The position numbers and the translations under genes were made by a program. Positions 45,295-48,006 of a stretch of DNA of 60,723 nt are shown here, piece after piece. Position 1 is the first letter of the stretch. Each line of letters opens with the position of its first letter. The stretch comes from Chloroflexota bacterium (GTDB lineage: Bacteria > Chloroflexota > Limnocylindria > Limnocylindrales > CSP1-4): contig PMXR01000052.1 of assembly GCA_003171035.1 (NCBI GenBank), positions 1 to 60,723 of the forward strand, given 5' to 3'. The notes under the pieces are model-generated. The model saw only the letters and a program-made list of their open reading frames with translations. It did no database searches and was not told the DNA's origin.

Positions 45295-46122
45295 ATGATA
45301 AAGAGCGACGTGCCGACGCCACGCGAGCCCGCCTCGAATCCCGTGCGCGACCTCCAGCTGGAGGACCTCGAGATCCTGCGCGAGTTCGCCCGGATCTGCG
45401 ACGCCCACTCGCTGCGCTACTACCTTGGCTCGGGGACGCTGCTCGGGGCCGTGCGCCACAAGGGCTTCATCCCCTGGGACGACGACATCGACGTCGAGAT
45501 GCCACGCCCGGACTACGACCGCTTCTCCAGTCTCTGCGCCACGGACCTGGGCAGCGGCTTCTCATGGCACACCTACCTGACCGATCGCCACTATCCCTTC
45601 ATGTGGGGCAAGCTGATGCGCGACGACACGGAGTTGCGCCAGGGCCCCACCGAGCATCTGCCGATCCAGCAGAGCCTCTACATCGACGTCTGGCCGCTCG
45701 ACGGGATCGCCAACTGGAGGATCCCCGAGGCGATCCAGCGAGTCATCCACAAGTGGTCCCAGATCCGATTGAGCGCTGATCTCAAGCGCCCGGGGATCCG
45801 GGGCCTGGTGGCCAAATCGTGGAAGATCGTGCCCCGCCGCCTGGTCGTCTGGCTGTGCGAACGGATGGCGACACTGACCCCCTACGAGCGGGCCCGGATC
45901 GTCGCCCACCCCAGGGCTCTGTACGGCTACCGCAAGGAATGCATGCCGCGCGATTGGTTCGGCCGTGGGGAGATGCTGCAGTTCGAGGAGATGCGGCTGC
46001 CGGGCCCTTCGCAGTGGAATGAGTATCTGACTCATGTATATGGTGACTACATGAAGCCGCCCCCTGAGGCGGAACGCAAGAGCAGGCACGAGATGACCGA
46101 GGTGAGGCTCTCGGGACGCTGA
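45295..46122 (+). CDS. licD: LicD-family phosphotransferase
   Basis: Contains [28 protein letters not shown]. The start is ATG 45295, with GTG 45265 as an alternative. Confidence 0.85.
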
Positions 46123-46210
46123 CCTGCGCCGCCTTTGGGCGCATACTTCGGCCTGAGCCGGCGGGCGGGATGCATCCTGCCGGGGCACCCGCGAGGAGGA
46201 TTGAGTCCCT

Positions 46211-46954
46211 GTGAGTTCGCCGACGGCTGTGATCCTGGCTGCCGGACTGGGCCGGCGGCTCGGCGAGTACACCGCCGCCCTGCCCAAGGCCCTGATCAAC
46301 CTTCACGGCAAGACGCTGCTGGAGCGGTCGCTCACGGCGCTCGCGGCGGCGGGATTCCAGCGCGCCTGCATCGTCACCGGCCACTGCGCGGTGAGCATCG
46401 ACGAGATTATCGGCGCGCGGAACTTCGGTCTGGAGGCCGTGACCAGGTTCAACCCGGACTACGCCACGGCCAACAACATCGTCTCGTTCCTGACGGTCGC
46501 CGACGTCGTGGAGCAGGGCTGCGTGCTGCTCAACTCCGACATCGTGTTCGACCCGTCGATCCTGGTCGACGTGGCGGCGGCTCAGACCGGAACCTGGCTC
46601 GTGGTCGACTCCGACGAGCCGCTCGGTCACGAGGAGATGAAGGTCACGGTCGACGGCGAGGGCCGGCTGACCCGCGTGAACAAGCAACTCGATCCGGCGC
46701 GGTCGGTGGGGGAGTACATAGGAATCACCCGCTTCGACGCCGCGGGCGGTCGCATCTGCCTCGACTCCGCGCGCCGGCTGGTCGACTCGGGCCAGGTGGA
46801 CCTCTACTACGAGCACGCCATCGATGCCGCGGCCGGCGATCTCGGCGCGCGCCTCATCCCGACGCGACGGCGCCTCTGGACCGAGATCGACGACGAACCC
46901 GACTACCAGCGCGGACTGCGCGAAGCGGCCCAGCTGGACGCGAAGGCACAGTGA
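46211..46954 (+). CDS. sugar/alcohol-phosphate nucleotidyltransferase (LicC-like)
   Basis: GTG start after GAGGAGG. Contains AVILAAGLGRRLGEYTAALPKALI (G-x-G-x-R-L nucleotidyltransferase loop). Confidence 0.8.
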   Translation: MSSPTAVILAAGLGRRLGEYTAALPKALINLHGKTLLERSLTALAAAGFQRACIVTGHCAVSIDEIIGARNFGLEAVTRFNPDYATANNIVSFLTVADVVEQGCVLLNSDIVFDPSILVDVAAAQTGTWLVVDSDEPLGHEEMKVTVDGEGRLTRVNKQLDPARSVGEYIGITRFDAAGGRICLDSARRLVDSGQVDLYYEHAIDAAAGDLGARLIPTRRRLWTEIDDEPDYQRGLREAAQLDAKAQ

Positions 46955-48006
46955 GCGTCGAGACCGCCGGCCACCGCTCGGTCCGCATCCCCCGCTTGAT
47001 GCGGTTGGTGGAGTCGCCGGCGCAGGCGGTCGACGAGCTGGCAGGGCTGGGCCGCGACTCGAGTTTCCTGATCGTCCACGCCGGACCGGCCTCGCCGACC
47101 GGCTACGGGGCGTCGCTCGCCAGAGTTGCCGTCGGGGCCGGCCTGAAGGTCTGCGAGGCCATCGCCGTCTCCAACACCGATGCCTGGGCACAGGCAGTGT
47201 CCGCCGCAATAGCGAAGCAGCGGCCCGAATACGTGGTCGGCGTGGGCGGCGGGCGAGTGGTCGACGTGGCCAAGGTGGCGGCTGCGCAGGCCGGTATCGA
47301 CTTCGTCAGCGTCCCGACCCAGGCGTCGAGCGACGGCATCTGCTCGCCCGTGGCGGTCATGGTCGACGAATCCGAGCATCCGCGATCGATCGCGGCCCGG
47401 ATCCCGGTGGCCGTGATCGTCGACATGGCGGTGATGTCGAGCGCGCCGGAGATTACCTGGAGGGCGGGGCTCGGCGACCTGGTGTCGAATCTGTCGGCGA
47501 TCAAGGATTGGCGCCGCGCCCACAAGCTGACCGGCGAGCCCTACGACGACTTCGCCTGTCTGGTCTCCGAAGCGGCGGCGCTGTCGGTCATCGACGACGG
47601 GGTCAGCCTTGCCGACCCGCTATTTCGCGAGAAGCTGGTGCGCGGCCTGATCCTGAGCGGCATCGCCATGGAGATGGCCGGTTCGTCGCGCCCGGCCAGC
47701 GGCGCCGAACACCTCATCAGCCACGCCCTGGACACGTTGCTCGATTCGCCCCGGCCGCACGGCCTGCAGGTCGCTTTCGGGACGATCGCCGCCGACCTGT
47801 TGCGCGGCGACGACCCGACCCGCCTCGTGGGCTATTTCCGGTCGGTAGGCCTGCCGGTATGCCCCGCGGACCTCGGCTTCGACATCGATACGCTGACCCT
47901 TGCCATCCGCCACGGCCCCGAACAGCGGCCCGGCCGGTCCACGATTCTGGACGAGGTTGGGGAGCCGCAGCTGGCGGCCCTGGCCGCTGCGTACGCCAGC
48001 TTGTAG
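46951..48006 (+). CDS. sn-glycerol-1-phosphate dehydrogenase family (AraM/EgsA-like, Fe/Zn-ADH superfamily)
   Basis: GTG 46951 overlaps the upstream stop (GTGA). Contains GVGGGRVVDVAK, VPTQASSDGICSP, GLGDLVSNLSAIKDWRRAHKLTGEPY and SSRPASGAEHLISH, which closely parallel my recalled B. subtilis AraM sequence. Confidence 0.8.
   Translation: MSVETAGHRSVRIPRLMRLVESPAQAVDELAGLGRDSSFLIVHAGPASPTGYGASLARVAVGAGLKVCEAIAVSNTDAWAQAVSAAIAKQRPEYVVGVGGGRVVDVAKVAAAQAGIDFVSVPTQASSDGICSPVAVMVDESEHPRSIAARIPVAVIVDMAVMSSAPEITWRAGLGDLVSNLSAIKDWRRAHKLTGEPYDDFACLVSEAAALSVIDDGVSLADPLFREKLVRGLILSGIAMEMAGSSRPASGAEHLISHALDTLLDSPRPHGLQVAFGTIAADLLRGDDPTRLVGYFRSVGLPVCPADLGFDIDTLTLAIRHGPEQRPGRSTILDEVGEPQLAALAAAYASL

Follow-up and report, generated by a model that had tools for sequence, protein, structure and literature searches.

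A three-gene operon on a 60,723-nucleotide stretch of DNA from an uncultured Chloroflexota bacterium of peat soil (contig PMXR01000052.1; the whole stretch is called the window here) probably makes an activated glycerol-phosphate and places it on a cell-envelope glycan, a reading to which a probability of roughly 0.6 is given. Its genes encode a LicD-type phosphotransferase, a nucleotidyltransferase (NT) and a dehydrogenase (DH) related to the sn-glycerol-1-phosphate dehydrogenases (G1PDHs) of the EgsA/AraM family. The parts of this reading are not equally firm. That a cytidine diphosphate (CDP)-activated alcohol is synthesized and transferred onto a glycan is very likely, and it is fairly probable that the alcohol is glycerol phosphate made from dihydroxyacetone phosphate (DHAP). 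The chances that the product has sn-1 stereochemistry appear about even. Most likely, the pathway extends the known scheme of reduction, activation and transfer (TarIJ/LicD, Gtp1-3/WchX) by a G1PDH-based CDP-glycerol cassette. The operon is laid out as follows:

45295..46122, plus strand: LicD, ATG start, 275 amino acids
46211..46954, plus strand: NT, GTG start, 247 amino acids, with GAGGAGG upstream
46951..48006, plus strand: DH, GTG start, 351 amino acids
46951..46954, plus strand: GTGA overlap with translational coupling, the NT stop TGA (46952-46954) lying over the DH start GTG (46951-46953)

A preliminary description of this DNA had named three such genes at 45295-48006, and open reading frames (ORFs) of the right identities do lie there on one strand at exactly these coordinates. 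The GTGA coupling of DH to NT, claimed at the same time, is read directly in the sequence. The start of DH is further backed by its N-terminus (H8-R9-S10...P14), which is conserved in 20 homologues. Wetland metatranscriptome contigs that are about 94-96% identical to the operon cross every gene junction. Two of them span the junction from LicD to NT (45598-46788 and 45924-46985) and one that from NT to DH (46762-46985), a further contig lies within DH (46957-47927), and two run from the end of DH into the gene that follows the operon (47898-48206 and 48012-48287). Because these contigs cross the junctions, the three genes are co-transcribed in situ in a close relative. A scan of 44.8-48.4 kb found no sigma-70 promoter, and the terminator-like matches of this interval all fall within the beginning of LicD, on the minus strand.

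The strongest evidence for the proposed function comes from the genes that accompany DH in related loci. A profile scan with DH across 185,579 species genomes gave 24 loci. Related loci are designated here by L-numbers; those such as L001-L015 are genome loci, and L055 and L109/L110 are metagenome contigs. In 17 of 17 Chloroflexota loci (15 genome loci together with L055 and L109/L110), NT immediately precedes DH; it is this NT-DH pair that is conserved as a unit, and not the LicD-NT-DH trio. The partner of the pair varies among the loci:

L001, L003, L004, L014: CDP-alcohol phosphotransferase (PF01066), directly after DH
L005, L006, L007, L010, L012: CDP-alcohol phosphotransferase (PF01066), divergently upstream of the pair
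L002, L009, L011, L013: TagF-like glycerophosphotransferase (PF04464), best NCBIfam models TarL/TarF/TarB
The window, L015, L055, L109/L110: LicD
L008: partner not determinable, as the contig ends

Wherever the flanking sequence is long enough, an enzyme with a CDP-alcohol donor is encoded next to the pair, and this enzyme comes from one of three unrelated families. LicD is the partner only in the lineage of the window, PF01066 enzymes are found in nine loci and PF04464 enzymes in four. Since three unrelated families of CDP-alcohol-using enzymes alternate beside it, the pair itself would make a CDP-activated alcohol. The logic that had been claimed for the trio, in which a keto-phosphate reductase and a cytidylyltransferase supply LicD for transfer onto a glycan, is thus supported by the gene families, and the partner genes in the relatives are all users of CDP-alcohol donors.

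The cassette is not limited to the Chloroflexota. On plasmid p1 of Streptomyces fungicidicus (L113:3925-9166), overlapping genes in the order NT-DH-PF01066 are followed by a glycosyltransferase and an ABC exporter, and the cassette adjoins hpnC/hpnD. The identities to the window proteins are 32% for NT and 38% for DH. According to a 2026 synteny survey, which contains no biochemistry, araM shares a conserved neighbourhood in Streptomyces with genes for a nucleotidyltransferase and a CDP-alcohol phosphatidyltransferase and with tagG and tagH, and the survey labelled this neighbourhood teichoic-acid associated (PMC13118837). For more distant DH homologues, from Alphaproteobacteria, Clostridia and Acidobacteriota, the translational coupling is to a HAD-IB phosphatase and not to NT. 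Loci of this more distant group are L017, L019, L020, L021, L022, L024 and L112; on a Rubrobacter plasmid, DhaK, HAD-IIA and an AraM-type G1PDH are encoded consecutively. The AraM of Bacillales sits in an arabinose operon, and the tblastn matches on plasmids of Clostridium butyricum and Desulfovibrio (pDV1) are DH genes that stand alone and whose neighbours tell nothing of their function.

Two further observations concern the Chloroflexota loci. In the subgroup formed by L005-L008 and L010, NT-DH is flanked by a CDP-alcohol phosphotransferase, a GT4 glycosyltransferase and a membrane protein with a Sulfatase domain that is similar to LtaS and phosphoglycerol transferases (examples are L008:3694-5370 and L006:8391-9155). 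If CDP-sn-1-glycerol and diacylglycerol were used there, phosphatidylglycerol with the natural sn-1 head group would be formed, and a Kennedy-type route feeding the LtaS-like enzyme is possible. The CDP-alcohol transferase of L012 (8362-9074) and the NT of L009 (9150-9787) are split over several frames, which reflects either frameshifts in pseudogenes or errors of long-read assembly in these metagenome-assembled genomes (MAGs).

DH matches Fe-ADH_2 (PF13685) with an E-value of 9e-27. Its best NCBIfam model is that of archaeal G1PDH (NF002022, 249.8 bits), compared with 80 bits for glycerol dehydrogenase and 26-32 bits for dehydroquinate synthase (DHQS). Among solved structures, DH scores 152 bits with 3ce9 from Clostridium (labelled 'glycerol dehydrogenase', function unassigned), 145 bits with Methanocaldococcus MjG1PDH, 142 bits with Pyrobaculum PcG1PDH and 92 bits with the G1PDH 9h4x, while true glycerol dehydrogenases reach at most 65 bits. 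It is 36-39% identical to the crystallised archaeal G1PDHs. The glycine-rich NAD(P) motif GVGGGR99-102, with GGG at 99-101, aligns with GIGGGR of MjG1PDH. The metal triad D176/H254/H270, which is invariant in 20 homologues, aligns with the ligand positions of the Methanocaldococcus and Pyrobaculum enzymes, 9h4x and GldA. DH also possesses the G1PDH-specific loop SSRPxSGxEH(x3)H (SSRPASGAEHLISH; SSR247PASGAEH254LISH258). In the alignment, this loop and the pair D186-W187 are common to all three solved G1PDHs. In contrast, E. coli GldA has a five-residue gap at the position of the loop, with neither the Arg nor the DW pair, and in 3ce9 and the C. butyricum homologue Ser replaces the loop Arg.

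In DHQS, R264 and H275 flank the zinc ligand His271 and bind the substrate phosphate, and R247 and H258 of DH are presumably their equivalents. Because these two residues are retained as in DHQS, they would bind a phosphate of the substrate in DH as well, which points to a phosphorylated substrate. In a neighbour-joining tree rooted on GldA, the NT-linked Chloroflexota sequences form a clade with 100% bootstrap, as do the LicD-linked subclade (the window, L015 and L055) and AraM, and the HAD-linked and stand-alone sequences group at 77%. Family scores, alignment and tree all place DH with the G1PDHs and not with GldA or DHQS, in agreement with the AraM/EgsA membership claimed in the preliminary description. 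Based on these features, DH is predicted to be an sn-glycerol-1-phosphate dehydrogenase that converts DHAP and NAD(P)H to sn-glycerol-1-phosphate (Gro1P).

NT is of the PF12804/PF00483 type. It matches NTP_transf_3 (PF12804) with an E-value of 4e-15 and carries the N-terminal signature ILAAGLGRRLG at residues 8-18. Among solved structures, it is closest to PntC (6pd1, full-length match, E 6e-20) and LicC (1jyk), and the best NCBIfam match is the IPCT domain, with no NCBIfam model above its cutoff. These nearest structures and models, PntC (CMP-aminoethylphosphonate synthase), LicC (CDP-choline) and IPCT (CDP-inositol), all use CTP to activate small phospho-alcohols or phosphonates. NT is predicted to be a CTP:glycerol-1-phosphate cytidylyltransferase of the LicC/PntC/IPCT type, and the CDP-dependent partner enzymes argue for its use of CTP and of a phospho-alcohol substrate.

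LicD matches PF04991 over the full length of the profile (1-227 of 227, E 7e-39) and has neither a transmembrane segment nor a signal peptide. Its nearest solved structure is FKRP (6kaj, E 7e-7). The acidic cluster WDDDID is present, and the same Asp cluster has been described for Mf1 (PMC11982090). Orthologues that are 74-94% identical keep their position adjoining NT-DH. LicD-fold enzymes accept several CDP-alcohols, and fukutin and FKRP use CDP-glycerol, with CDP-1-Gro preferred over CDP-3-Gro (PMC8262930; PMC11982090). The predicted role of LicD in the window is to use CDP-glycerol as donor and to place its glycerol-phosphate on the hydroxyl of a sugar within a lipid-linked glycan. In another Limnocylindrales MAG (L106:5856-8807), a 49%-identical LicD lies beside an IspD/TarI-like cytidylyltransferase and an IolG-like inositol dehydrogenase, which suggests another CDP-alcohol decoration, with a cyclitol or polyol phosphate, in the same bacterial class.

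The proposed pathway consists of three cytoplasmic steps followed by export. DH would reduce DHAP with NAD(P)H to Gro1P, and the translationally coupled LicC-type NT would join Gro1P and CTP to form CDP-(sn-1)-glycerol. The cytoplasmic LicD would transfer the glycerol-phosphate to a sugar of an undecaprenyl-linked polymer, with release of CMP. This acceptor polymer would be built by neighbouring TagA-like and other glycosyltransferases and exported via a Wzm/Wzt (TagGH-like) transporter. The NT-DH pair may be an ancient and portable cassette for the supply of CDP-glycerol that is plugged into a PF01066 enzyme, a TagF-like polymerase or LicD.

A number of points weigh against this reading. The score of DH with NF002022 (249.8 bits) is below the equivalog cutoff of 413, DH lies in its own clade, and the deep nodes of the tree have bootstrap values of 19-40%. 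For these three reasons another keto-phosphate substrate is possible. DH is a member of the G1PDH family by its motifs, without equivalog certification, and the activity of its clade is predicted from sequence alone. The phosphate-binding role of R247 and H258 is carried over from structural data on DHQS, and the identity of the acceptor polymer is read from the gene neighbourhood. Metatranscriptome libraries may carry DNA, and contamination of the RNA contigs is possible. In addition, pneumococcal Gtp1, a dehydrogenase with a similar annotation, reportedly reduces unphosphorylated dihydroxyacetone.

Gtp1 belongs to the route to CDP-2-glycerol of pneumococcal serotypes 15 and 23. If the operon worked in this way, DH would reduce dihydroxyacetone to glycerol, a separate phosphotransferase would form glycerol-2-phosphate, NT would activate it, and LicD would transfer it as WchX does. 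The pneumococcal genes wchX-gtp1-gtp2-gtp3 are annotated as glycerol phosphotransferase, 'glycerol-2-phosphate dehydrogenase', nucleotidyl transferase and phosphotransferase and are of the same kinds as those of the operon, and the Ser in place of Arg in the SSRP loop of 3ce9 and its C. butyricum homologue points to substrate variation within the DH family. However, the CDP-2-glycerol route reportedly needs a third enzyme, Gtp3, and is said to give a 2-linked product (work of Wang et al. from 2010). All ORFs of the 60.7-kb window were called and scanned against family profiles, and no kinase/APH, HAD enzyme, LicA, LicB, TagD-type transferase (PF01467) or phosphoenolpyruvate (PEP) mutase was found among them. 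Likewise, no kinase, APH or HAD gene, and thus nothing like Gtp3, lies beside the NT-DH pair in the 17 loci. Moreover, the window DH keeps Arg247 and His258 as DHAP-using G1PDHs do, and the gene order differs in that NT precedes DH. Judged by gene context and annotation, the CDP-2-glycerol route is disfavoured and seems unlikely. The preliminary description had left the choice between DHAP/Gro1P and a Gtp1-3 set undecided; its first reading, from DHAP through Gro1P to CDP-glycerol, is now favoured because no third enzyme was found and the phosphate-binding residues are kept.

The alcohol could instead be a different one, with DH reducing another keto-sugar phosphate to a polyol phosphate (as TarJ does for ribitol-5-phosphate) that NT and LicD would then install. 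The sub-cutoff score and separate clade of DH are compatible with such a substrate, the TagF-like partners in relatives score higher with TarL, a ribitol-phosphate polymerase, than with TarF (all below cutoff), and L106 combines its 49%-identical LicD with an IspD/TarI-like cytidylyltransferase and an IolG-like dehydrogenase, which points to the use of other alcohols by relatives of LicD. Against this, the active-site and loop motifs of DH are all of the G1PDH type and invariant in 20 homologues, and we know of no member of the G1PDH family that acts on larger ketose phosphates. A different alcohol is therefore improbable, if a little less so than the CDP-2-glycerol route. Phosphonate tailoring, in which a PntC-like NT would activate 2-aminoethyl- or 2-hydroxyethylphosphonate and DH would be a phosphonoacetaldehyde reductase, could draw on PntC (6pd1) as the best solved structure for NT and on a faint 16-bit match of DH to the PsrA iron-dependent alcohol dehydrogenase (ADH) model. 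Since neither PEP mutase nor phosphonopyruvate decarboxylase was found in the window and DH is of the G1PDH type and not a PhpC-type ADH, this explanation is largely ruled out and has only a slight residual probability. Decoration with phosphocholine, as in the Lic1 system, was rejected, as neither the LicA nor the LicB family was found in the window.

Compared with known systems, the proposed glycerol-phosphate pathway shares each of its steps with one or another of them. DH is like the EgsA (archaeal) and AraM (Bacillus) G1PDHs (EC 1.1.1.261) in fold family (PF13685), metal triad, SSRPxSGxEH loop and DW pair. However, EgsA and AraM feed ether-lipid synthesis (GGGPS/PcrB), whereas DH is coupled to a cytidylyltransferase and to phosphotransferases of the glycan or teichoic-acid type, and no prenyltransferase lies near it. 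The pneumococcal wchX-gtp1-gtp2-gtp3 genes, which lie in a polysaccharide locus, likewise combine a dehydrogenase with a nucleotidyltransferase and a glycerol-phosphotransferase; by annotation and context, they differ in the additional Gtp3 and in gene order. The CDP-ribitol system of TarI/TarJ (Bcs1) with LicD-fold transferases has the same sequence of keto-phosphate reduction, CTP activation and polyol-phosphate transfer with release of CMP. It differs in that the reductase family is unrelated, TarJ being a medium-chain zinc ADH, NT is LicC-type and not IspD-type, and the predicted alcohol has three carbons instead of five. The TagD/TarD and TagF system for CDP-sn-3-glycerol resembles the one proposed here in its CDP-glycerol donor, in the TagA- and TagGH-like genes near the operon and in the TagF-like partners of four related loci. 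TagD, however, is a PF01467 enzyme that uses glycerol-3-phosphate from GpsA or GlpK, while here the opposite enantiomer and a dedicated enzyme are predicted. The Lic1 system (LicA/B/C/D) shares a LicC-type NT and LicD; in the window, there is no LicA kinase or LicB transporter, and the alcohol would be made de novo by the dehydrogenase. In CDP-inositol synthesis by IPCT/DIPPS, a LicC-like NT likewise feeds a CDP-alcohol phosphotransferase. Finally, the araM cassette of Streptomyces has the same NT-DH-PF01066 order as L001, L003, L004 and L014, and the window has LicD as the transferase instead.

CDP-1-glycerol has been thought absent from bacteria, and all known bacterial Gro1P moieties derive from phosphatidylglycerol (PMC8262930). 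If the reading proposed here is true, a cassette of G1PDH and cytidylyltransferase working with LicD, TagF-like enzymes and CDP-alcohol transferases would overturn this phosphatidylglycerol-only origin and constitute a fourth route to glycerol-phosphate glycopolymers. We tentatively propose, at somewhat less than even odds, that at least two phyla, the Chloroflexota and the Actinomycetota (Streptomyces), own a cytoplasmic CDP-sn-1-glycerol pathway in which a G1PDH and a LicC-type NT feed three classes of phosphotransferases. Glycerol-phosphate polymers, decorations and even phosphatidylglycerol-type head groups with sn-1 stereochemistry would then be made without going through phosphatidylglycerol. 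Bacterial G1PDH homologues also serve as evidence in the debates on the lipid divide and on the membrane of the last universal common ancestor (PMC5059525, PMC6431249). The gene context of those in Chloroflexota and Streptomyces points to a role in envelope glycopolymers and not in archaeal-type lipids; if so, many bacterial 'archaeal lipid' G1PDH genes would be genes for cell-envelope glycopolymers. The copy of the cassette in Streptomyces makes the pathway open to test in a genetically tractable organism.

Downstream of the operon, the window encodes four secreted proteins that share a C-terminal module:

48139..57996, plus strand: four secreted proteins with triple-module C-termini (916, 908, ~680-691 and 684 amino acids)
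49738-50874, 52536-53669, 54598-55725 and 56845-57975: the triple modules, each of three repeats of ~127 amino acids

The claim that four downstream proteins share a module was thereby confirmed, each ending in three such repeats. All four have signal peptides; the second carries a GH18 domain and the third SpoIID and fn3 domains. The modules are 46-60% identical between the proteins and belong to no Pfam family, and all 12 repeats contain the invariant pattern R-x-x-D-x-R...GP...F...G-x-L...TG. AlphaFold (AF2) predicts an all-beta jelly roll for a single repeat (mean local confidence, pLDDT, 89) and a compact triple (global confidence, pTM, 0.76). For the single repeat, Foldseek returned weak and generic matches with template-modelling (TM) scores of at most 0.58, including CBM16/35, a porphyran-binding carbohydrate-binding module (CBM), a Bdellovibrio fibre tip and viral jelly rolls; for the triple module, it found no global match in the PDB (TM at most 0.25). 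With 261 confirmed stretches, the triple module abounds in metagenomes from peat and fens, and a putative wall- or glycan-binding role is plausible. It is predicted to be a triple jelly roll, unlike the choline-binding repeats of the Lic1 system, from which the idea of a mark read by repeats was taken.

On this analogy, glycerol-phosphate installed by LicD would anchor the four triple-jelly-roll proteins as phosphocholine anchors choline-binding proteins, a decoration/reader pair that is compatible with the glycerol-phosphate pathway itself. LicD-NT-DH and the block of module genes after DH, including those with GH18 and SpoIID/fn3, are kept together in the window, L015, L055 and L109/L110. 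In L109 the block is kept even though the upstream flank is rearranged, and because this flank differs there is a mild case for selection on the linkage. Furthermore, RNA contigs cross the spacer from DH to the first module gene, the all-beta jelly rolls with weak CBM matches follow signal peptides and are fused to wall-acting enzymes, and R-x-x-D-x-R is invariant in all 12 repeats. However, the loci in which trio and modules are linked all belong to a single narrow lineage, with DH 79-84% identical, and their linkage is thus explained by common descent; the fold matches are generic. Within 10 kb, module genes are absent from the 13 other NT-DH loci. Many metagenomic module loci lack upstream flank; among the 22 that have 3 kb or more of it, the trio is present in one (L055) and absent from 21. 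L028 is part of the same contig as L109, and the trio lies just outside the L028 stretch. Co-conservation of the trio with the module proteins, which the preliminary description had expected, thus holds in the window, L015, L055 and L109/L110 and fails in these other loci. The module proteins are physically linked to the trio in this lineage and a functional link is putative. With the linkage confined in this way, the decoration/reader pair is not supported in the form in which it was proposed; the idea is not thereby refuted and is rather unlikely.

The window has a GC content of ~65%, and it represents high-GC DNA of an uncultured Chloroflexota bacterium. The closest genome loci are Limnocylindrales-type MAGs of fen origin, and the population of the organism is present in many peat and permafrost metagenomes. 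Besides the operon and the module genes, the window contains the following features:

1-5.6 kb: fatty-acid synthesis genes
7.5-45 kb: a large glycan island
11909..12682, plus strand: WecG/TagA/TarA-family glycosyltransferase (PF03808, E 3e-54; TIGR00696, 137.7 bits with a cutoff of 69; TarA model, 114 bits)
17878..19877, plus strand: Wzm/Wzt (TagG/TagH-like) ABC exporter (ABC2_membrane, ABC_tran, Wzt_C; teichoic-acid export ATPase model, 185 bits)
44257..45213, minus strand: GDP-L-fucose synthase (Fcl), divergent from the trio (NF047922, 286 bits; Epimerase, E 1e-53)
58-60.7 kb: deoxysugar methylation genes

The glycan island contains Gmd, Fcl, several GT4 and GT2 glycosyltransferases and methyltransferases. 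The WecG/TagA/TarA-family gene would mark a teichoic-acid-like, lipid-linked polymer pathway as the acceptor route, and Wzm/Wzt, with a carbohydrate-binding domain at the C-terminus of Wzt, would export the decorated polymer. In O-antigen systems, the Wzt-type C-terminal domain reads a chain-terminating cap, and a glycerol-phosphate or methyl cap is conceivable here. Fcl, which is kept as a neighbour in L015 and L055 and not in L109, is probably the edge of the glycan island that supplies the acceptor polymer.

The island also holds a complete-looking pathway for a nonulosonic acid of the pseudaminic or legionaminic type (23507-29298 and 38574-39305). The set comprises a PseB-like dehydratase, four DegT aminotransferases, a PseG/PseH-like fusion, NeuB and a CMP-sugar synthetase, which suggests a sialic-acid-like sugar on the polymer or on a glycoprotein. 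At 29326-31560, on the minus strand, a polytopic membrane protein of 744 amino acids with a soluble C-terminal domain and no Pfam match may be a GT-C type glycosyltransferase, a polymerase or a ligase, and the ~2 kb around its gene have an unusual AT skew of 0.23. Of a DegT/DnrJ aminotransferase at 33737-34543 (minus strand) there is only a fragment, which matches positions 114-189 of the 360 in the profile; it probably represents a pseudogene and lies inside the stretch of lowest GC in the window (32-36 kb, GC 0.59). The GC content at third codon positions is 0.88-0.91 in the trio, as in the housekeeping genes at 1-17 kb, and 0.75-0.81 in the flanking glycan and module genes. Judged by composition, the trio looks older than both the variable glycan island and the surface proteins.

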